Assembly (NCBI GenBank): GCA_963737655.1
Contig: CAVTTN010000002.1
Location: 3,072,001 to 3,136,000 of the forward strand
Source of the DNA: an uncultured Planctomycetota bacterium
Lineage (GTDB): Bacteria > Planctomycetota > Planctomycetia > Isosphaerales > Isosphaeraceae
Length of the DNA stretch: 64,000 bases
Reading direction: 5' to 3'
Under the pieces are notes generated by a model, which saw only the letters and a list, made by a program, of their open reading frames with translations, was not told where the DNA came from and made no database searches. A program made the position numbers and the translations under genes. Shown piece after piece: positions 1 to 10,540 of this stretch (the stretch's first letter is position 1; each line of letters starts with the position of its first letter).

Positions 1-2344
1 GCTGCGAGGTCCCCTTGCCCAGCTCCATCGGCTGCAACTTGGTGGCGCCGGCGCGGCCGAGGGGGACGCTCACCAGCGATCGGCTGTCTCCCTTCCAGTA
101 GTCTTCTCGCTTCGGCGCGATGACCTCGAACGGCACCTCGACGCGGTTGGCCTCCCTCGCCGCGGTGCCGACGGCGTGGAGGAGCTTCGTGAATCCGTCT
201 CCCGGCGGAGGCGAGTCCAGCGAGAGCGGAAAGGCCTGATAATTCGGGTCGCGGAGGACGAACTTGCCGTTGTGCCAGACGAGCTTCGCGGAGTGCATCT
301 CCAGGTCGCGGCGATCGGTATTCACCGGGAAGGGCTGGGCCGTGTCGATCCCCAGGACGAGGTAGACGCCGCACCGGGGGCCGCTCTTGGCGATCGCCGC
401 CAGCCTCTTGGACGACGATTCGGCGAACCCGGTGGGGAAGTCGGCGATCACGAGGACCCGGTACGGCTCGGCGACCTCGCCGGCCTGGGTGTTGTACTGC
501 TCGATCGTGGCGAACTCGTTGCGGAGGTACCGCTGGATCACGGTCTCGATGTGGCTGTTGATCTCGGCGAGCCGGGCGTCGATGTCCTGAGGGTCGGTCC
601 AGATGTGGCCGTTGACCAGCGCCTCGGAATAATCGGCCAGGTGCATGAAGGCGGCGAACGAACGGCCGAGGCCGACCGGGTCGATGATCGTGAAGCGGAC
701 CTTGCCCGGCGGCAGCCCGGTCAGGAACCGGAGCATCACGGCCTGCATCGCGTCGATGGCCTTCTTGCGGCCCTCGTCGCCGGAGAACTCGACGATCACC
801 GACGAGGTGTCGGGGAAGTCGAGAAGGGCGGGCAGGAGGAACTCGTCGGGGGCCATCGCGCGGAGCCGATCGTCCTTCGAGGGGCCTCCGGGGAAGCTCT
901 CCAGCTTCAGGAGGACCTCGCCGATCCTCAGCGCCGGAGGCAGGCCGGGCACGGGCTTCCACGGCGTCCCGTTGGCCCGGGCCCAGTCCGGGAACCGGGG
1001 ATCGACGGCCGATCGCACCCGGGCGATCTCGGCCGAGAGGGCGTCGATGCCGGCCTTCCAGACGTTGGCCAGCGCGTCCCAATCCGCCTTGCGACGGGCC
1101 TCCGCCTCGGCGATCGCGGAGCGGTAATCGGCGAGGGCCTTCTCGGTGGCCGAGGTGTGTTCGGCGGCGATCTCGGCGGATCGGCGCGTCTCGGTCTCGG
1201 CGGCCTGGCGGAGGAGCTTATCCCGGGCCTCGACGATCTCGGCCCTCTGGCCCGTGGCCTTTTCGTCCGCCTCGCGGACCTTCTCCAGCTTCGTCCGATC
1301 GGCGTTTTCGCGGATTCGGTCGCGATCGGCGGTGGCCTTGTCCATCTCGGCGACGCGGCGGGCCGTGGCCTCGGCGACCCGTCGGTCGTGGACCTCGGCG
1401 ATGAAGGGTTTGGCGGCGGTCGCCAGCGCCTCGGCGTCGGCGAGGGCCTGGAGCAAGGGGAGCCGCTCCCGGGCGATGCCGGTCCTGGCGCCTCGGACGA
1501 TCAGGGTCCGTACCCCCCAGCCGATGGCCCCGGAGACGATCACGCCCAGGATCGAGCCGACGATCGGGCCGAGGAAGAAGACGGCCGGGGCGATCAGCAG
1601 GAGGGCGGGCAGCACGAACGCCCAGGCGATCCTCGGCCCCCGGAACGACTGGGCGACCGACAGCCCTTCGAGCTTCAAAAGGGCCGCGTCGGCCGCCACG
1701 ATGGCCGCATGGAGGGGCGGAAAGGGGTCCTCGGCCGGGTCGATCGTGATCGGGGTAATTTCGGCCGCCTGCGGGACGCGATACCCCTTGTAGAGGCCCA
1801 GGATGATCCCGGTGGCGTCCTGGAGGACCTTGAGCGTCTCGCGCTCGGCGGCCAGGAGCTTTAGGTGCTCGGCCCGCCACTCCTGGGCGCCTTTCTCGGC
1901 GGTCTCGAAGACGGCCGACGCCTCCCATCGGGCGGACTCGAACCGCGATTCGGCCCCCTCGACGTCCCGGCGATGGCGGGCGAGGGCCGTCTTCCGGCTC
2001 TTCTGATGCTCGGCCTCGACGGTTGCGGTCCTGGCCTGGAACTGCGAGTTGGCGCCCGACCGGATCTTGGCGACCAGGGCCCGGAACTCGGCGGTCTCGG
2101 CGTCCCGTCGGGCGTCGGCGGCCTGGATCGCGGCGGATCGGGCCTCCTCGGCCCGGCGGATTCGGGCCTCGAAGACGGCCGCCGTTTTGGTCTCGGCCTC
2201 GGCCCGGGCGGAGGTCAGCCGGGCGAGCTCGCCGGGGATCTTCGACCATCGGGCGTGGATGGACGGGCCGGCGGGGTGGCCTTCCCCGTGATGGGGTTCC
2301 GTCCGGGGCGTGGCCCCGGCGTGGGCGAGTTCAGGAGCGGCCAT
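1..2344 (-). CDS. FtsK/SpoIIIE-domain membrane ATPase (EssC/EccC-like), 3' end beyond window
   Basis: ATG at 2344 opens a frame with no stop to position 1, so it is absent from the ORF track. Translation: Ala/Glu/Arg coiled coil, a hydrophobic hairpin (AWAFVLPALLLIAPAVFFLGPIVGSILGVIVSGAIGW), a second coiled coil, then FtsK-like motifs FTIIDPVGLG, IEQYNTQAGEVAEPYRVLVIADFP and GPRCGVYLVLG. It ends VPLGRAGATKLQPMELGKGTSQ, the kind of segment that normally precedes a Walker A motif. Confidence 0.85.
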   Translation of the reverse strand, partial: MAAPELAHAGATPRTEPHHGEGHPAGPSIHARWSKIPGELARLTSARAEAETKTAAVFEARIRRAEEARSAAIQAADARRDAETAEFRALVAKIRSGANSQFQARTATVEAEHQKSRKTALARHRRDVEGAESRFESARWEASAVFETAEKGAQEWRAEHLKLLAAERETLKVLQDATGIILGLYKGYRVPQAAEITPITIDPAEDPFPPLHAAIVAADAALLKLEGLSVAQSFRGPRIAWAFVLPALLLIAPAVFFLGPIVGSILGVIVSGAIGWGVRTLIVRGARTGIARERLPLLQALADAEALATAAKPFIAEVHDRRVAEATARRVAEMDKATADRDRIRENADRTKLEKVREADEKATGQRAEIVEARDKLLRQAAETETRRSAEIAAEHTSATEKALADYRSAIAEAEARRKADWDALANVWKAGIDALSAEIARVRSAVDPRFPDWARANGTPWKPVPGLPPALRIGEVLLKLESFPGGPSKDDRLRAMAPDEFLLPALLDFPDTSSVIVEFSGDEGRKKAIDAMQAVMLRFLTGLPPGKVRFTIIDPVGLGRSFAAFMHLADYSEALVNGHIWTDPQDIDARLAEINSHIETVIQRYLRNEFATIEQYNTQAGEVAEPYRVLVIADFPTGFAESSSKRLAAIAKSGPRCGVYLVLGIDTAQPFPVNTDRRDLEMHSAKLVWHNGKFVLRDPNYQAFPLSLDSPPPGDGFTKLLHAVGTAAREANRVEVPFEVIAPKREDYWKGDSRSLVSVPLGRAGATKLQPMELGKGTSQ

Positions 2345-2347
2345 GGG

Positions 2348-2560
2348 TCAGGAGCATTCCCGGTAGATCCGTGAGAGGACGTCGCAGAGCGCCTGCATCG
2401 CCCGGAGGGTGGCCGTGGCCTGGGATTCCATCGGAATGATCCGCCTCTCCTCGAAGTCCTGGCGGACCACGTCCCGCCAGCCGTCGCCGGTCTCGTCCCA
2501 GCGGGCCAGCAGGGTCTTGGTCGCGTTGCGAAGCTGGGCGGTGCCGGAGCCGACATACAT
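2348..2560 (-). CDS. small helical WXG100-like protein (70 aa)
   Basis: 1 bp from the upstream stop and 3 bp from the downstream ATG. Central W-R-D-x5-F-x-E motif shared with the 90-aa WXG100-like protein. Confidence 0.75.
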   Translation of the reverse strand: MYVGSGTAQLRNATKTLLARWDETGDGWRDVVRQDFEERRIIPMESQATATLRAMQALCDVLSRIYRECS

Positions 2561-2561
2561 C

Positions 2562-3209
2562 TCAGCGTCCCTCCTCGACCGGAGCGGGCCCGGCCTCCTC
2601 GGCCTGTTGCGTCGCGGGTTCGGCCTCGGCCTTGGACGCCGGAGGGGCCGCGATCGTTCCCGTCGTCGAGACGGCCGCCGGGGCGGACGACGCGCCGACC
2701 GCGGGCCGGGCCGGCTGGGTCTCGGGCGGGGCGATCCGCGAGTATTCTTCGATGGCCACGATCATCCGATCGACCATCGCGATCGATTGCTGGAGTTCGT
2801 ATTCCAGCATGTCCGCCAGGGGCCGGGCCCGGCCGTCGTACTCGCCCACGGCCTGTTCCAGCTGGGGAATCCAGCGGCGGACGGTCTCCAGCTTCTCCTC
2901 GGCCTCCTCCAGGTGGACCTTCGCCTTGCGGACCGCCTCGCGCTGCTCGGAGTCGTGGGCGTTCGAGCCGTCCTTCGCGCCCAACTGCTTGCGGAAGAGC
3001 TCGGCCTTGGCGTTGGAGAGGTCTTCCTTCCTCCTCTTGATCTCGGTCTGCCAGTGGATGCGCTGGTCGTGGGTCAGCCAGTCGATGCACCGGCGGATCT
3101 CCATCTCCATCGCGCCGAGCGCATGCTTGGCGTCGTCGCCGAAGAGGGCGAGCGACTCTCGGACGGCCTCCAGGACGTCGACCGACGAGACATCGACGGG
3201 CAGTGCCAT
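2562..3209 (-). CDS. coiled-coil hypothetical protein (215 aa) with Ala/Pro-rich tail
   Basis: Helical heptad-like sequence; tightly packed in the operon; GGAGG-like RBS upstream. Confidence 0.8.
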   Translation of the reverse strand: MALPVDVSSVDVLEAVRESLALFGDDAKHALGAMEMEIRRCIDWLTHDQRIHWQTEIKRRKEDLSNAKAELFRKQLGAKDGSNAHDSEQREAVRKAKVHLEEAEEKLETVRRWIPQLEQAVGEYDGRARPLADMLEYELQQSIAMVDRMIVAIEEYSRIAPPETQPARPAVGASSAPAAVSTTGTIAAPPASKAEAEPATQQAEEAGPAPVEEGR

Positions 3210-3234
3210 CGGGATCGGGCCTCCCCTGGGCTAG

Positions 3235-3507
3235 CTAGCGTTGCCTGAGGTATTCCTCGGCACGGTCGGCCTTCCGGACGAGGAACGGGATGTGCTCATC
3301 GGTGACCTCGATGAATCGCGTGATCACCTGCATGGTCTGCTCGAATTCCTCGGTGAACTTCTCGTGCTCGCGGTCCCGCCAGCTCTGCGAGAGGTTCATG
3401 AGCTGGCCGTGGAGCGCCGTGAGGCTCTCGGAAAGCTCCATGTTGAACTGCTTGAGGTTGTTGGCGAACCGGCGGAGCTCCTCCGGATCGACATTGGCCT
3501 GGGGCAT
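3235..3507 (-). CDS. WXG100-family (ESAT-6-like) protein, 90 aa
   Basis: MPQANVDPEELRRFANNLKQF...LSQSWRDREHEKFTEEFEQ. The N-terminal VDPEEL, central Trp turn and ~90-aa helix-turn-helix size are typical. GGAGG RBS upstream of ATG 3507. Confidence 0.88.
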   Translation of the reverse strand: MPQANVDPEELRRFANNLKQFNMELSESLTALHGQLMNLSQSWRDREHEKFTEEFEQTMQVITRFIEVTDEHIPFLVRKADRAEEYLRQR

Positions 3508-3557
3508 GGGAGGTCCCTCCGACCGGCCTGGGCTCGCGATGGGGCACGACCCTTCCC

Positions 3558-3586
3558 AGGCTATCCGTCGCGGAGGCCGATGTAAA
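3558..3586 (-). promoter_or_regulatory. putative sigma70 promoter of the WXG100/FtsK operon
   Basis: Minus strand TTTACA (3586-3581), 17-bp spacer, TAGCCT (3563-3558); about 50 bp upstream of the WXG100 ATG. Confidence 0.55.
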
Positions 3587-3617: not shown

Positions 3618-5578
3618 TCATGTCGAGTGCATTCTTCCAATCCCCATCGCCTTGCGGATCGCTTCGAGGGCCCTCGGGTCCTCCAGCCCCGTGAGGTCGC
3701 CGGCCGGCTCGCCCAGTGCGGAAGCCCGGATCGCCCTCCTCACCACCTTGCCGCTCCGAGTCTTCGGCAATTCGTCGAGGAAGACCACGCGAGACGGCGC
3801 GAACGACTTGCCGAGGGCCTCGGCGACGACGCCTCTCAGCTCCTCCATGAGCCGGCTCGCTTCGAACATCGGGACCTTCACCACGACGAACGCCCAGACG
3901 GCCTCCCCCTTGATCGCGTCGGGCACGCCCACGGCGGCGGCCTCGGCCACCCAGGGATGGCCGGTCAGGGCCGATTCGATCTCCGCCGGGCCGACCCTCT
4001 TGCCCGAGACCTTGATCGTGTCGTCGCTCCGGCCGTGGAGGAACCACTGGCCGAACTCGTCCACCGAGGCCCAGTCGCCGTGCGCCCAGACGCCCGGCCA
4101 TCGCGACCAGTACGCGGCGCGATACCGCTCGGCGCGTTCCAGAACCCCCGGGTCATCCCCGGCCAGGGCTTCCGACACACCAGCTCCCCGACCTGCCCTC
4201 GGACCGATTTCCCTTCGGGATCGACCACGTCCACGGCCATCCCCAGGCTCGGGCCGCCGAGCGAGCCGGGCTCCAGGCGATCGGTCGGGAACGGCGACAG
4301 GAAGCATGCCCCGACCTCGGTGCCCCCGGAGAAATTCATCACCGGGCATCGGCGTCGGCCGACCGTCTCGAAGTACCAACGCCACGGGCCCGGGTTCCAC
4401 GTCTCGCCCGTCGAGCCGAGGATTCGCAGGGAGGCGAGGTCGTGCGAGAGGACCGGCCCGTCCCCGTGCTTCATCAGGGATCGGACCAGAGTGGGAGAGA
4501 CGCCCAGGATCGTCACGCGATGCCTGGCGACGATCGACCACAACCGATCGACGTCCGGGAAATCCGGCACGCCTTCATACAAGACGATCGTCCCGCCCAT
4601 CGCGAGCCCGCCGACGACCTCCCACGGGCCCATGATCCAGCCCATGTCCGTGAACCAGAAAAGTCGGTCCTCCGGCGTCAGATCGACCTGGTGGGCGACC
4701 TCCTGGGCGATCTTCGCGAGGAACCCGCCGTGGACGTGGACGGCGCCCTTCGGCCGTCCGGTGGTCCCGGAGGTGTACGCGATCAAGAATGGATCTTCCG
4801 AACTCATCGATTCGTTCGGCGCGTCGTCCGGGGCGGCCTCCGCGAGTTCTTCGAGCCAGGAATCCCGGCCCGAGCGCATGGAAACCGGGACGTTCGCACG
4901 GCGGACGACCAGGACATGGCGGACCGTCGGGCTGGAATCGGCGGCGAGGTCCGCCACGTCCTTCAAACGAATGATCGCGCCCTTGCGGAAGAATCCATCG
5001 GCCGTGACGAGCACGCAACTGCCCGAGTCGCGGAGCCTCTCGGCCACGGCCTCGTGACCGAATCCCGAGAAGATCGGCAACGCGATGGCGCCGATCCGGG
5101 AGACGGCGAGGAAGGCGGTGACGACCTCGGGGATCATGGGCAGCATCAAGGCCACGCGGTCCCCCCGGCCGACTCCGAGAGACTTCAATACCGAGGCGAC
5201 CCGGCATGTCTCGGCCCGGAGTTCTCGATAGGAGAACGTGCGAACCGGGCCGTCCTCGCCTTCCCAGATCAGGGCCGACCGGTCGCCTCCGGGCGAGTCG
5301 GCATGGCGATCGAGGCAGTTGTGAGCGACGTTCAACCGCCCCCCGACGAACCATCGGGCCCATTCCGGGCCGTCCGATGCGTCGAGCACGCGCTCATAGG
5401 GCTCGAAGAAGTCGATCGGCAGTTCCTTGACCACGGCATCCCAGAACCATTCGATGTCTTCAACCGACCGGAGCCGCAACTCGTCCACCGTCGCCAGGCC
5501 GAGCCGGCGGGCGAACCGCGAGACGTTGCAGCCTTCAACCATTTCGGGGGGAGGCGTCCAGGCAAACGGGGCGTCCAT
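3618..5578 (-). CDS. acetyl/acyl-CoA synthetase (AMP-forming), frameshifted at ~4131
   Basis: AMP-binding motif YTSGTTGRPKG in ORF 3965..5578. The C-terminus (GRSDDTIKVSGKR, LPKTRSGKVVRR) is in ORF 3618..4541. One extra C at 4131-4132 restores FWNAPERY. Confidence 0.88.
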
Positions 5579-6310: not shown

Positions 6311-9300
6311 TCATTTCGTGGCCGACTTGCTCTCCAGATCGAGCTGGATCTTGCGGAACCGGACCTCGGTCGGCCCCCCCGAGTGGAGCTGGAAGCCGAA
6401 GATGCCTCGCCTCGCCCCGGCGGGATCGTTGAGATCGACGCACGTCTTCCCGTTGATCCTGGTCACGATCTTCGGTCCGATCGCGACGACCTCATACGTG
6501 TTCCAGTCGCCGGGCTTGACGAACGCCTCGCCCGACTTGTCCCACAGGAGGCCGCGGCCGTTCTCCTCGTAGAGCTTGCCCCACCAGCCGGCGCCGATGT
6601 CGGCCTGATCCCCCTTCATCTCGCCGTCGGCGAGGCTCTGGCTGCGGAACTGGAGGCCGCTGTTCCCCTCATTCTTGACGAGCTTGACCTCGAACGAGAG
6701 GCGGAAGTCCTCGGCGGCCAGCTCGGAGCGGAGGAACTCGTTCCGCTTCAGGCCGGTCGTTCGGCCCACGATCTCGCCGTCCTCGACGCTCCAAAGCTTC
6801 GGGTCGCCTTGCCACCCGGAGAGGTCCTTGCCGTTGAAGAACGCCTTCGCCGTCTCGGGCGTGGCGAGGAGCGGCACCTGATTGGGGCTGGCGAGATAGG
6901 CCACGAGCGACCGGACCTCGAAATCGGTGAGGGGCGTCCAGAGGTCATCGGGCATCATCGACTTGTCGCTCAACTTCCGCTCGTCGATCTCCCCTTTGGG
7001 GACGATCACGGTCTCATTGGCGGTCACGAGAGTGATCGCGTCCTTGTCCTCGGCCCGGACGATCCCGGTCAGGGTCCGGCCGTCCTTGGTGGCGATCACG
7101 TGGGCGAGATAGTCCTTGCCGATCAGGGCGTTCGGGTCCAGGACGTTCGAGAGGACGTATTCGAGGTCCGCCCGATTCGAGCCGGTGAGCTCCGGCCCGA
7201 CCTTCCCGCCCGTCCCGAACAACGTATGACATTGCGAACAGGTCTTCGCGTACATCGCACGGCCGAGCATGACGTCGGGCGCGCCGGTGTAACCCGCCCG
7301 GACGATCCCCCGGTACTTCGTGATCAGCCTGGACTTGTCCGGATCGGTGTCGCGGACCGCGCCCCAGACCTCGGCGATCCGCGAGTTCACGGAGTCGTCC
7401 TTGAGGTTGCGGAGCTGGCGGATCAGGTCGGCCGAGAGCTCCGAGGGGGCGATCGTCTTGACGGCCACGGCATCCAGCATGGCCCGGGCCGAGCGAGGAC
7501 GCGCCGCCAGGGTGTTCAGGGCGTCACGCTTGTCGGCCGTCGTGAGGTCGGGATAGGCTTTCAGGAGGAGTGCGGGCGTCTCGGCGTCGTCGTAGGCGGC
7601 GAGTCCTCGGATGGCCGGGCCTCGCAAGGCCGGGTCCGTTTCGGCCTTGGCGACCAGGTCCCTCAAGGTCGCCGAAAGCTCCGGATCGTGGACCTTGAGC
7701 AGGGTCGTCAAGGCCGCCAGGCGTCGCGAGGTCTCGGCCCGGCCGTCTTCGAGCGACTTGCGGACCTGGGCCAGCGCCGACGGGTCGCCGAACGTGACCC
7801 CGAGCAGAACGGCTCGCGAGCGCAGGCCCTCGTCCGATTCCTTCGCGAGTGCCCGAGACACCGCCGGCCATCCCTTCGGCATCGCGGCCTGGCGGCGCCC
7901 CTTCAGCGCCTCGTCGATCCCGCCCAGGAGGGCCGCCTTCTGATCTCCGCTCGTCGCCTTGCCGAGCACGTCGACGAGGAGCGCGATGGCCTCGTCGGTC
8001 CCGAGAGACGCCACTCGTCGCGTCATGAACGGCAACGTGTTGGGCAGCTTGCTCGAAAGGGCGAGCGCCATCGCCCGGGACGCGTCCGCCGCGGCGAGCG
8101 GCTCGGCCGCGTACCAGGTCATCAGGGGCAGATTCGGGTCGTTCGCATCCTCGGCGTGACCGAGGAGGCCGGCGAGCACGTCCCATCGCTTCCCCAGGGG
8201 CAGCCTCTGGAGGGCCGAGGCCAGCGAGAGCCGGACCACCGGCGACGCATCCGCCTTCGCCATCTCGACGAACCTCGCGAGGATCGCGGCCGACGGCTCG
8301 CCGTCCTCGACCGCCAGCCTCACGGCCCACGATCGGTAGTGCGGCTCCGGATTCGCCAGGGCCGTCGCGATCTCGGAGTCCTCACGCATGCCGCCGACGG
8401 CTCGGGCCGTCAGGAGAGCACGGATCTGGACCTGCGCATCTTCGGCCGCTTCGGAGGAGAGCGTCTTGAGCAGGGCTCGGGCCTCGGGATCGTTCCCACG
8501 CTCCTGGAGAATCCTCCGGGCGTGCCGGGCCTTCCACTCGTTGTCGGATTTCTGGAGCGTCACGAGTTCGGCCGTGCTCATTTTTCTCAGATCCACCGGC
8601 CTGACCTTCGCGTCTCCGTAAACGACCTTGAAGATCCGCCCGTTGGTGCGGTCGTGGGCGCCGTCCTCGACCCGGTGGCACTGGTTCTTGTCGTACCAGT
8701 CGATCATGTACGCATTGCCGTCCGGCCCGTACTTCAGGCTGACGATCTGCGACCAGCTATCGTTGGCGAAGAGGAAATCCGGGGCGTGCGAGCCGACGAA
8801 CCCCGAACCCTTGGGGGCGAGGATGTCGCGGTTGAGCCTGGCCCCGTGGATGTTGTTCATGAAGAGCGAGCCGCGATATTCCTTCGGCCACGCCCCGCCG
8901 AGGTAGATCATCGCGCCGGAGTGGGCGTGGCCGCCGCCCATCGAGTCGGACCGGCCGTTGCCCGCATGGGGGTTGCCGCCGACGTAATGGCGGTGATCGG
9001 CGATGGTCTTGATGTCGTCATAGGTAAACGGATTGAAGTGCGGGCCGGCCTGCCGTTCGTAGCGCCCCCCCGGGATCATCTCGTAGAGGTGGGGGATCAC
9101 GCAGGAGGTGATGAATGCATCTCCATTTTCATCCCAGTCGATGCCCCAGGGGTTGCTCGTGCCGTGGGCGAAGACCTCGAACTTGTCCTTCGTCGGGTGG
9201 TACCGCCAGATCCCGGCGTTGATGCCGACCCGGTTCGCCTCGGGAGTGCCGGGCTTGCCGACGAGCGAGTGGGTGAACACGCCGTGGCAGCCGTAGAGCC

Positions 9301-10342
9301 AGCCGTCGGGTCCCCAGGCGAACGAATTGAGCGTCTCGTGGGTGTCGTGCTGGCCCCAGCCGTCGAGGATCACCTGAGGGGGGCCGTCGGGCCTGTCGTC
9401 GCCGTCCTTGTCGGGAATGAACAGGAATTCGGGGGCCGCGCCGACCCAGACCCCGCCGAAACCGACCTCCAGCCCGCTCACCAAATTCAACTTGTCGGCG
9501 AAGACCTTCCGCTCGTCGAAGCGGCCGTCGCCGTCGGTGTCCTCGAAGATCAGGATGCGGTCCCGGGCCTGGTCGGGTGCCACGCGATGCGGGTAGGAAT
9601 ACGCCTCGGCGACCCAGAGACGGCCGCGATCGTCGATGGCGAAGGCGATCGGCTGGACCACGTCGGGCTCTCCGGCGAACAGCTCGACCCGGAAGCCAGC
9701 CGGCACGGTCATGGCCTTCGCGGCGTCGAGGGGCGAGAGGCCGTTGTTCGCGTGGACGTCGGCCGCGACGTATTTCGCCCGTTCCGGAACGTTCGGCCGT
9801 GCGTCGTGGAGCCGGAAGTTGTCGAAATTGACGTGGCCCCAGCCCGAGGAGTCCTGATCGACCAGGCGGACGAAGATCGTCTGGCCCCGATTCTTGGACA
9901 GGTCGGCGGCCACCGGCTTGAGGTTCTCCGTCTCGTCGCCCCGGGCCTCGAAGATCACCTGGCCGTCGTCGCTTCGGACGAGTTCGACCCGGGTCCCCTT
10001 GTGGCTCCCCCCGCCCACCAGGAACGAGGCCCAGGGCTTCGTCACGACGAACGGGGCCGAGGTCAGGGTGCCATGCGGGTCGTCTCCGTCCGCCTCATAC
10101 GAGCCGACCCAGAACTTGCCCTGATGCTCGCTCTTCATGTCGCCCCGACGGCGGGCGACGGCGTCCCCCTCGACGAGCGACCGGGCGAACGCCTCCCCTT
10201 CGGCCTTCCAGTCGCGGAGCGAGCCGGCCTCGAAATCCAGGTTCAGAGGCTTCCCGCTCTTCGGGTCGGTGGGCAACGCGCCTTCCTGGGCGAGGAGGGG
10301 CGTCGGCAGGGCGAGGCAGATCAGGACGAAAAATGTTCGCAT
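6311..10342 (-). CDS. PVC-type haem-binding (CxxCH) membrane-bound dehydrogenase-domain protein with HEAT repeats and C-terminal DUF1080-like domain
   Basis: Signal peptide MRTFFVLICLAL at 10342; beta-propeller-type repeats (WGPDGWLY); HEAT-like helices; CSQCH...GPELTG haem site; FFNGKDLSGW...LHSGG C-terminal domain. Confidence 0.85.
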   Translation of the reverse strand: MRTFFVLICLALPTPLLAQEGALPTDPKSGKPLNLDFEAGSLRDWKAEGEAFARSLVEGDAVARRRGDMKSEHQGKFWVGSYEADGDDPHGTLTSAPFVVTKPWASFLVGGGSHKGTRVELVRSDDGQVIFEARGDETENLKPVAADLSKNRGQTIFVRLVDQDSSGWGHVNFDNFRLHDARPNVPERAKYVAADVHANNGLSPLDAAKAMTVPAGFRVELFAGEPDVVQPIAFAIDDRGRLWVAEAYSYPHRVAPDQARDRILIFEDTDGDGRFDERKVFADKLNLVSGLEVGFGGVWVGAAPEFLFIPDKDGDDRPDGPPQVILDGWGQHDTHETLNSFAWGPDGWLYGCHGVFTHSLVGKPGTPEANRVGINAGIWRYHPTKDKFEVFAHGTSNPWGIDWDENGDAFITSCVIPHLYEMIPGGRYERQAGPHFNPFTYDDIKTIADHRHYVGGNPHAGNGRSDSMGGGHAHSGAMIYLGGAWPKEYRGSLFMNNIHGARLNRDILAPKGSGFVGSHAPDFLFANDSWSQIVSLKYGPDGNAYMIDWYDKNQCHRVEDGAHDRTNGRIFKVVYGDAKVRPVDLRKMSTAELVTLQKSDNEWKARHARRILQERGNDPEARALLKTLSSEAAEDAQVQIRALLTARAVGGMREDSEIATALANPEPHYRSWAVRLAVEDGEPSAAILARFVEMAKADASPVVRLSLASALQRLPLGKRWDVLAGLLGHAEDANDPNLPLMTWYAAEPLAAADASRAMALALSSKLPNTLPFMTRRVASLGTDEAIALLVDVLGKATSGDQKAALLGGIDEALKGRRQAAMPKGWPAVSRALAKESDEGLRSRAVLLGVTFGDPSALAQVRKSLEDGRAETSRRLAALTTLLKVHDPELSATLRDLVAKAETDPALRGPAIRGLAAYDDAETPALLLKAYPDLTTADKRDALNTLAARPRSARAMLDAVAVKTIAPSELSADLIRQLRNLKDDSVNSRIAEVWGAVRDTDPDKSRLITKYRGIVRAGYTGAPDVMLGRAMYAKTCSQCHTLFGTGGKVGPELTGSNRADLEYVLSNVLDPNALIGKDYLAHVIATKDGRTLTGIVRAEDKDAITLVTANETVIVPKGEIDERKLSDKSMMPDDLWTPLTDFEVRSLVAYLASPNQVPLLATPETAKAFFNGKDLSGWQGDPKLWSVEDGEIVGRTTGLKRNEFLRSELAAEDFRLSFEVKLVKNEGNSGLQFRSQSLADGEMKGDQADIGAGWWGKLYEENGRGLLWDKSGEAFVKPGDWNTYEVVAIGPKIVTRINGKTCVDLNDPAGARRGIFGFQLHSGGPTEVRFRKIQLDLESKSATK

Positions 10343-10540
10343 GATGGCGCAACCCGGGATGAGGGACGGACGGGGAGGGCGGGCCTCGCGTCCGATCTTG
10401 ACCGATCCGGCCCGGAGAAGGAAGGCCCCTGCGAGCCTCCTCGCGACGAGGGGGAACCGGACGGCTGAACTCGGCCTCTCCATCGGTTACAGTATCGAAG
10501 ATGTCCCGACCGCGACCCGAAGAAAGCGCTCGCGAGGCCC

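Follow-up and report, generated by a model that had tools for sequence, protein, structure and literature searches.

Introduction

Type VII secretion is usually described from Actinomycetota and Bacillota, and the planctomycete envelope is of the Gram-negative type. Composite helical complexes such as the PE-PPE pairs target type VII substrates; these pairs, the EccC pore and the EsaD/EsaE/EsaG system provide the analogies drawn in this study. The ATPases of the T7SS (type VII secretion system), EccC in T7SSa and EssC/YukB in T7SSb, combine a two-helix membrane anchor with tandem FtsK-like domains and have a WXG100 partner. These features are shared by a four-gene cassette, g1-g2-g3-ATPase, at the left end of a 64,000-nucleotide (nt) stretch of DNA from an uncultured planctomycete of the family Isosphaeraceae. 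This whole stretch (G000:C2:3072001-3136000, G000 being the host genome) is referred to as the window, and the 16 kb to its left, which were also read, are numbered as L005.

Systems of this kind have been published before. In footnote 6 to their Table 1, Zhang et al. 2012 describe a solo WXG gene beside a YueA-like ATPase with three HerA/FtsK domains, the middle one alone being active, name planctomycetes, and call such systems mobile versions of the T7SS. In the passages cited here, Poulsen et al. 2014 (PMC3935865) place WXG100 proteins almost only in Actinobacteria and Firmicutes, and Abby et al. 2016 (PMC4793230) excluded ESX as absent from diderm bacteria with lipopolysaccharide.

The preliminary description of this DNA had proposed a little-studied, stripped-down type VII-like system. 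Its gene inventory and its label fit the data presented here, whereas the idea itself had been published, by Zhang et al. 2012 and in a 2023 review (PMC10765036). We consider the module very probably a member of the class with a solo WXG protein and a three-domain ATPase. The complete explanation that we favour, in which this membership is combined with ATPase-driven export of hairpin proteins across the inner membrane, is given a probability of roughly one half.

Results and discussion

The cassette is a self-contained, conserved module of four genes, and its arrangement recurs far beyond chance. All four genes lie on the minus strand with intergenic gaps of 25, 1 and 3 nt, exactly as first described, and synteny across Planctomycetota was found in three sets of loci. 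The order g1-g2-g3-ATPase is present in 9 of 11 loci from close relatives (one of the others is cut by the end of the locus and one has no small-gene matches within 1.5 kb) and, by tblastn, in 15 of 20 loci from the phylum at large, or 16 of 20 when clustering of open reading frames (ORFs) is added. A scan of species genomes with the g1 motif pattern returned at least 598 stretches, at least 595 of which encode a g1 relative. Among the best 80 of these, the complete ordered set of four genes is found in 61 and the ATPase in 70; 74 are from Planctomycetota, three carry the label 'Alcaligenaceae', one is Candidatus Electronema and two are unlabelled. In the ~8 kb flanking the module on each side, no other ORF cluster recurs in more than three of 21 loci. 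Strong ATPase matches were obtained in 35 of the 41 genomes of a family and class sample that includes the host, the other six giving FtsK-level matches only. At E <= 1e-40, the ATPase was detected in 61 of 401 sampled Planctomycetota genomes, a floor owing to the stricter filter. Its close homologues are annotated merely as FtsK/SpoIIIE-domain or hypothetical proteins.

The published class is defined by a single WXG protein and a three-domain ATPase with one active domain, and both features were found here: g1 is the sole PF06013 (WXG100) match in the host genome, and the middle domain of the ATPase is the only one with an intact active site. With regard to mobility, the genomic context of the module differs between loci, and a tblastn search with g1 matched 2 of 72,556 plasmid records and none of the phage records. 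In contrast to the 'mobile' character given to the class, the planctomycete ATPase tree roughly follows the taxonomic labels within the phylum. This FastTree phylogeny of the second and third ATPase domains comprises 75 of 88 rows; the 13 others, with the copy in the window and L107, the Candidatus Electronema locus, among them, were dropped for coverage below 85% or for stops. A further difference is that g2 and g3 are not mentioned in the parts of Zhang et al. 2012 cited here.

Two observations concern the distribution of the module. Three bins labelled 'uncultured Alcaligenaceae' (L052, L088 and L108) encode a planctomycete-type g1; in the ATPase tree, two such bins fall within Gemmataceae, with L088 beside Limnoglobus, and the labels of these bins are probably wrong. 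In addition, a second copy in genome G300 (L032) has the ATPase first, followed by two g1-like genes. Neither g2 nor g3 was detected there, and this copy sits on a long branch of the tree.

Judged from its profile matches, g1 is a genuine WXG100 protein, a hairpin of the HP0062 (WRD) type. It passes the Pfam gathering cut-off for WXG100 (PF06013, E 3.1e-10, 40.6 bits against 27.3), in agreement with its earlier designation as a WXG100-like protein of 90 amino acids (aa). The turn motif is WRD instead of a literal W-x-G; W-R/Q-D is found in 19 of 19 orthologues, with W43 and D45 invariant. The closest solved relatives of the orthologue profile are two structures of Helicobacter pylori HP0062, which has the same WRD turn (3fx7, E 5.2e-14; 2gts, E 3.6e-13), followed by EsxB and EsxA. 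HP0062 is reported to be a dimeric hairpin with WRD in its bend, and its gene clusters with one for an FtsK/SpoIIIE-domain protein (PMC3397514).

The 70-aa g3 is also a helical hairpin, with an invariant W-x-D turn (W28 and D30, 18 orthologues) and a conserved R-x-E-C-S-like C-terminal end. Its description as WXG100-like draws on a profile comparison with g1 (hhalign probability 76%, E 2.3e-5, W-x-D motifs in register); in Pfam, g3 has no hit. A profile search of the PDB gave EsxA at E 0.027, which is not a meaningful match, and the nearest named Atlas cluster, at a score of 0.79, is a lead only. We therefore regard g3 as putatively WXG100-like, with reservations.

The 215-aa g2, initially described as a coiled-coil protein, is modelled as one long helical hairpin followed by a disordered tail. 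No match was found in Pfam, NCBIfam, PADLOC or PDB sequences, and a PDB profile search likewise gave no meaningful match. In the AlphaFold2 model, built with a 17-sequence alignment, the helices span residues 10-77 and 84-159, with a mean predicted local distance difference test score (pLDDT) of 82.7, mostly above 90 in the hairpin; the C-terminal tail is rich in Ala, Pro and Glu. Foldseek comparison of this model with the PDB retrieved only generic coiled-coil hairpins, none at E <= 0.001. A relationship of g2 to g1 was also considered and was rejected (hhalign probability 6%).

All three small proteins are helical hairpins and look like type VII substrates, and modelling supports a four-helix bundle of g2 and g3. 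In the complex prediction, g1, g2 (residues 1-170) and g3 were combined, each with its own alignment, and g3 was scored as the partner. The interaction prediction score from aligned errors (ipSAE) of g2-g3 had a median of 0.83 over three runs, whereas the best of three controls reached 0.02, as did the prediction in which g2 was replaced. Among solved complexes, 116 of 157 attain the ipSAE mark used, as against 2 of 215 mismatched pairs, a calibration that is only rough for predictions with own alignments and three chains. The runs had at least 96% of contacts in common, with a partner pLDDT of at least 90. In the predicted complex, g3 docks on residues 2-49 and 106-149 of g2, that is, on the open end of the hairpin, and the contact between g1 and g3 is limited to residues 86-90 of g1. 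The stop codon of g2 and the start codon of g3 overlap or abut in many orthologues, which fits co-translation of the partners.

The predicted g2-g3 bundle is reminiscent of the LXG toxin which, with its Lap partners, is described as a composite helical targeting complex of type VII substrates (PMC9600955). As in that system, a longer helical protein with a variable C-terminus would be bundled with a small neighbouring hairpin. However, g2 and g3 show no sequence relation to LXG (PF04740, 0 hits in the host genome), and no toxin domain is present on planctomycete g2.

The ATPase comprises a cytoplasmic coiled coil (~230 aa), a hydrophobic hairpin (~237-283), a second coiled coil (~190 aa) and three P-loop domains. 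The regions flanking the hairpin (~230 and ~190 residues) are helix-rich and poorly conserved. All 20 orthologues, and likewise P0001, have this hydrophobic stretch of ~40-50 residues; its position, near residue 130-290, varies with the start that is chosen. As it is long enough for two helices, both of its ends should lie on one side of the membrane, and the N-terminal coiled coil and the three P-loop domains are presumably together on the cytoplasmic side. Of the three P-loop domains, the degenerate first one is located in the window, whereas the active middle one lies to the left of the window, followed after a frameshift by the third. Reading the contig in that direction, as the preliminary description had suggested, revealed Walker A (GRTGSGKST) and Walker B (IVDEFQEF) just past the window edge.

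In 21 aligned sequences, only the middle domain keeps both GxxGxGKS/T and hhhhDE, with a mean column identity of 70%. Although well conserved, the first domain has no Walker A, and ADFP stands at its Walker B position; in the third domain NLLIVGQ replaces the P-loop. Comparison by hhalign identifies the third domain as a degenerate copy of the middle domain (probability 97%, E 3.1e-11). The AlphaFold2 model of the C-terminal 869 residues of a same-genus orthologue contains three alpha/beta P-loop domains (mean pLDDT 85.5, predicted template modelling score 0.76). Thus the ATPase has a membrane anchor and three tandem FtsK-like domains, the first of which is recognised by its fold and a weak Pfam match (E 0.0099). 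It differs from EccC and EssC in that the active site is in the middle domain and not in the first, and in that coiled coils occupy the place of their FHA domains or DUF domain.

PF01580 is the only Pfam family above its cut-off in the ATPase (E 5.3e-30, residues 758-936). Together with the hydrophobic hairpin, this agrees with the initial view of a membrane FtsK/SpoIIIE-like ATPase. The additional claim that it is of the type VII kind rather than an ordinary FtsK stands in part, owing to its profiles and tandem fold. Among NCBIfam models, EccCa (E 2.4e-29), EssC (8.8e-28) and EccCb (3.6e-23) are the best-scoring families, compared with 6.2e-6 for FtsK. The PDB sequence search ranks EccC (6.2e-32), EccC5 (5.4e-27) and YukB (8.6e-17) ahead of FtsK (3.9e-11). 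Foldseek, run with the orthologue model, places EccC D1-D3 first (4nh0, E 2.4e-33, ~960 columns), then the D2-D3 regions of EccC and EssC, with FtsK at 1.3e-16. Multi-domain alignment by VIA-align gave Z 28.4 for EssC D2-D3 (model residues 289-853, 485 residues), Z 27.8 for EccC D2-D3 (502 residues) and Z 27.4 for EccC D1-D3 (743 residues, root-mean-square deviation (rmsd) 13.4), and the third domain alone (model residues 583-851) matched D3 of Staphylococcus aureus EssC with Z 18.2.

Other comparisons speak against the type VII assignment of g1 and the ATPase. All of the curated EccC/EssC cut-offs were missed (TIGR03924, 102.6 of 509.15 bits; TIGR03928, 96.5 of 778.4; TIGR03925, 81.7 of 346.55), and so was that of TIGR03930 (WXG100_ESAT6) by g1, at 35.7 bits against 44.85. 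The first and middle ATPase domains are not significantly related by hhalign (E 0.15). Moreover, the catalytic domain taken alone is structurally closest to the FtsK motor (Z 32.0, rmsd 2.5, 281 residues, 25% identity), followed by the conjugation coupling protein TcpA (Z 28.6) and single EccC/EssC domains (Z 27-28); in these models the catalytic domain by itself fails to separate EccC/EssC from FtsK.

The FtsK/SpoIIIE DNA translocases thus share the catalytic domain fold and motifs, and give the highest single-domain score. Nevertheless, their defining combination of a single alpha-beta motor with a gamma DNA-recognition domain is not found in the cassette ATPase, which has three tandem domains, two of them degenerate, a different N-terminus and an operon with hairpin proteins; neither FtsK_gamma nor FtsK_alpha is among the 15 Pfam families at E <= 0.1. 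Because of its tandem layout, its sequence profiles and its lack of a gamma domain, we place the ATPase nearer to EccC/EssC than to FtsK. A role as DNA translocase of the FtsK, TraB or TcpA kind, in the transfer of chromosomal or plasmid DNA with the small proteins as accessories, is very unlikely. FtsK motors (Z 31-32) and TcpA (Z 28) are indeed its best single-domain matches and PF01580 its sole family above cut-off, but its Pfam hits include no domain that reads FtsK orienting polar sequences (KOPS; the gamma domain) and no other DNA-binding domain, and the EccC/EssC profiles match ~20 orders of magnitude better than FtsK. In addition, no relaxase or conjugation gene is conserved within ~8 kb in the 21 loci, and a separate 802-aa frame elsewhere in the genome has a weak single-domain FtsK-type match only.

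In this assembly the ATPase gene is interrupted, which counts against a functional module in this genome. The ORF ends at a TGA after 1086 aa, and the last ~230 residues are in another frame, where a 220-aa ORF follows. In contrast, the orthologues are single ORFs, with open frames of ~1300-1430 aa, the 20 aligned ones measuring 1205-1384 aa depending on the chosen start, and the two parts are contiguous in the loci of close relatives. The break corresponds to one G missing from a run of five. When one G is added, the sequence becomes QGGANLLIIGQ, in agreement with QxGxNLLIVGQ in the orthologues. The split is most likely an assembly error.

If the frameshift were real, the module would be decaying and the operon inactive in this genome, whatever the module does elsewhere. 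The single ORFs of all 20 aligned orthologues and the displaced final residues would agree with such decay, which we nevertheless consider unlikely. A single base restores the QGGxNLL region, and both halves of the ATPase keep full sequence conservation (g5 is 58.6% identical to its same-genus orthologue). Furthermore, the same kind of break affects the AMP-dependent synthetase/ligase-like gene that lies immediately upstream of the cassette: this gene is divided into two overlapping ORFs, its frame changes at a five-base G/C run, and one base more yields the usual PWPG...ERY motif region. Scattered indel errors would also agree with a marker-gene completeness of only 87.7% in an assembly of three contigs. 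Comparison of homopolymer run lengths between the host genome and the loci of relatives showed no clear depletion of runs >= 6.

The conserved core of g2 comprises ~165 residues, and the length of the tail varies from 0 to more than 200 residues among relatives. A profile of this core (84 sequences) matched 3262 cluster representatives at E <= 0.001. Among the best 150 of these, the 19 relatives of at least 255 aa were scanned for Pfam domains: all 13 of 338-371 aa have a C-terminal Imm33-like domain (PF24719) above its cut-off, and the remaining six have no Pfam domain. The fusion occurs in a Phycisphaerae-type clade, above the cut-off in L027 and L074 and just below it in L062 and L106. A search of the Imm33-like subclade for conserved neighbours, aimed at a linked nuclease gene, found none. 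Longer fused forms of g2 were not detected at E <= 1e-5, which is weak evidence, as the same search missed the known 338-371-aa fusions.

The two plasmid matches represent related cassettes. On the Helicobacter sp. plasmid NZ_AP024820.1, a g1-like gene is followed by genes for a 340-aa protein with a C-terminal WHH nuclease domain (E 1.1e-11), a SUKH immunity protein (E 1.6e-6), a 77-aa protein and an 823-aa three-domain ATPase. The Caballeronia plasmid NZ_CP049321.1 has genes for a VWA protein, a WXG100 protein, proteins of 436, 113 and 76 aa and a 927-aa ATPase, and then for CARF (DUF1887), VWA, PP2C phosphatase and Ser/Thr kinase proteins. Both ATPases align end to end with the planctomycete three-domain region (Helicobacter, E 1e-51 over ~770 residues; Caballeronia, E 2e-81). 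Compared with them, the planctomycete ATPase has an extra N-terminal region of ~450 aa that contains the hydrophobic hairpin between its two coiled coils. The 77-aa Helicobacter protein was considered as a g3 homologue and rejected (hhalign probability 1.6%). The nuclease-immunity pair at the position of g2 speaks for a toxin-handling role in the wider family.

By analogy with type VII secretion, export of the hairpin proteins across the inner membrane, driven by the ATPase, has, in our view, an even chance of being the function of the planctomycete module. The ATPase would oligomerise at the inner membrane as EccC and EssC do, with ATP turnover in the middle domain only, and the two degenerate domains would serve regulation and substrate docking. 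The clients would be a g1 dimer, HP0062 being a dimer, and the g2-g3 four-helix bundle; their recognition would take place via the helical ends, and transport across the cytoplasmic membrane would deliver them to the periplasm. The tail of g2 may represent a slot for variable cargo, given its range of lengths, the Imm33-like domain in 13 of the best 150 relatives, and the WHH/SUKH pair at this slot in Helicobacter. For g2 and the WHH protein, the 'same slot' refers to gene order only, their homology being undetected. Export across the inner membrane and the role in antagonism that the preliminary description proposed are both inferences.

Several findings weigh against export. In line with the preliminary description, no further type VII gene was recognised: PF10140 (YukC/EssB), PF05108 (EccB) and PF04740 (LXG) gave 0 hits in the host genome (87.7% complete), while control genomes were positive. 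None of EccB/D/E, MycP, EssA/B and EsaA is a conserved neighbour; genome-wide, only EssB and EccB were searched for, and EccD-TM, EccE, EsaA and MycP were not. The host genome has no paralogues of g1, g2 or g3, whose profiles find only themselves, no toxin-immunity pair, and no gene for an outer-membrane step. The mean column identity of g1 (63%, 19 orthologues) is higher than usual for a secreted effector, and an immunity-type domain such as the Imm33-like one on g2 is odd for an exported protein. The N-terminal part of the Helicobacter WHH protein, tried as a g2 homologue, was rejected (hhalign probability 0.3%). No N-terminal extension and no clear membrane segment is present in the plasmid ATPases, nor is such a segment present in any neighbour examined, so that membrane translocation is not obviously an activity shared by the family. 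Finally, the 2023 review, in the passage cited, treats the few Gram-negative WXG100 sequences found beside an FtsK/SpoIIIE protein as unconfirmed secretion systems.

The lack of an anchor in these plasmid ATPases and the conflict-system genes nearby favour a non-secretory interpretation, in which the module would be a cytoplasmic or membrane-associated, ATP-driven machine of conflict, defence or regulation. The hairpins would then be adaptors or regulators that hold or release partners, for example nucleases via Imm33-like or SUKH domains. The context of the Caballeronia cassette (CARF, VWA, PP2C and Ser/Thr kinase) is typical of conflict systems, the Helicobacter cassette contains a nuclease-immunity pair, and the Imm33-like fusions, the high conservation of g1 and the failure of the YukC/EssB, EccB and LXG searches all agree with such a machine. 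In PADLOC, the ATPase matches generic FtsK/HerA-domain models only (SspH, mad8 and HerA), its active domain matching SspH and mad8, both defence models, in their FtsK-like parts. However, the small proteins have no PADLOC match, all 20 planctomycete ATPases examined have the hydrophobic hairpin, no effector gene is conserved beside the planctomycete module, and the tandem three-domain layout with a WXG100 partner is a hallmark of type VII ATPases. We consider this non-secretory function somewhat unlikely and retain export of the hairpin proteins as the preferred reading.

With regard to expression, the cassette had been credited with its own promoter, TTTACA-N17-TAGCCT. Both hexamers are present with a spacing of 17 nt on the minus strand, and a GGAGGG Shine-Dalgarno-like run precedes the g1 ATG by 7 nt. 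A promoter consensus scan listed 0 sites upstream of g1; the pair is not listed because TAGCCT matches at only 3 of 6 positions. Of four same-genus upstream regions, all retain TAnnnT and three retain the whole TTTAC(A/T)-N17-TAnnnT pattern, with divergent flanks; in the fourth region, TTGTCT stands in place of TTTAC(A/T). Comparison within the genus thus lends modest support to a putative promoter. The coordinates of these and other features are given in Table 1.

Table 1. Positions of the cassette genes, related loci and neighbouring features.
Feature	Location	Strand	Remarks
g1	window 3235-3507	-	90 aa
g2	window 2562-3209	-	215 aa
g3	window 2348-2560	-	70 aa
ATPase, N-terminal 781 residues	window 1-2344	-	gene continues left of window edge
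Promoter-like pair TTTACA-N17-TAGCCT	window 3558-3586 (TTTACA 3581-3586; TAGCCT 3558-3563)	-	~50 nt upstream of g1 ATG; putative, read from sequence
ATPase ORF up to the frame break	L005 15084-18344		1086 aa, ends at TGA
ORF in another frame, end of ATPase	L005 14401-15063		220 aa
Five-G run with one G missing	L005 15098-15102 (G000:C2:3071098-3071102)		site of frame break
Inverted repeat	L005 14345-14400		11 bp, GC-rich
Trypsin-like protease gene	L005 11586-14345		919 aa, convergent
AMP-dependent synthetase/ligase-like gene	window 3618-5578	-	two overlapping ORFs, 537 + 307 aa
G/C run in AMP-binding gene	window 4145-4149		five bases, frame change
ORF with CxxCH motif	window 6311-10483	-	1390 aa
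g2-Imm33-like homologues	L027 6619-7755; L074 8278-9330; L062 8082-9212; L106 8313-9371; P0138 and 12 further proteins		
Second copy in G300	L032 8370-12691		ATPase first, two g1-like genes
Helicobacter sp. plasmid cassette	L122 8001-12403		NZ_AP024820.1
Caballeronia plasmid cassette	L121 7267-16264		NZ_CP049321.1
Ubiquitin-like conjugation operon	L119 8433-16142 (G000:C2:6876433-6884142)		
AAA_16/STAND-FtsK protein	L120 4114-7152 (G000:C2:1366114-1369152)	-	1012 aa

To the left of the window, a GC-rich inverted repeat (CCCTCGGGGTC ... GACCCCGAGGG) sits between the end of the ATPase frame and the convergent gene for a trypsin-like protease; it was not listed by a terminator scan because it has no T-run. 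Downstream of the AMP-binding gene, a long ORF encodes a protein that has a signal-like segment at its N-terminus and contains a CxxCH motif for haem binding.

Two further loci of the host genome were inspected. A YukD (PF08817) hit was followed as a type VII lead and rejected, since it is a single gene 3.8 Mb away that heads an operon of the ubiquitin-like, E2, E1 and JAB type, unrelated to the cassette. Besides the YukD-like ubiquitin-like protein, this operon encodes an E2 (UQ_con), a 734-aa protein with no hit in Pfam, a ThiF-type E1, a Uma2 endonuclease-like protein and a JAB peptidase. Together they make up a bacterial set for ubiquitin-like conjugation, of a type that has been linked to phage defence. 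The second locus encodes a 1012-aa protein that combines an AAA_16/STAND-like P-loop at its N-terminus with an FtsK/SpoIIIE domain at its C-terminus; this protein is neither the cassette ATPase nor a canonical FtsK.

Conclusions

The class to which this module very probably belongs is already in print, and the present copy adds little to it beyond a few leads: the predicted g2-g3 complex, the variable tail of g2, and the difference between anchored planctomycete ATPases and the anchor-less ATPases of proteobacterial plasmids. A broader proposal can tentatively be made, namely that the modules form a third architectural class of type VII-like export. This class would belong to bacteria with two membranes and would have the ATPase as its sole membrane part, g2-g3 as its targeting unit, and the C-terminus of g2 as a general slot for cargo or adaptors. 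Most lineages would have a disordered tail at this position, whereas the Phycisphaerae-type clade would have an Imm33-like domain, to which a nuclease could be bound, and the Helicobacter plasmid relative a WHH nuclease as a fusion, accompanied by SUKH. If this possible third class is real, a route of secretion and antagonism has been overlooked in hundreds of Planctomycetota species. Should the module export proteins, it would be the simplest known relative of the type VII systems, with one membrane protein in cells that have an outer membrane, and would bear on how type VII pores form and how their substrates are recognised.

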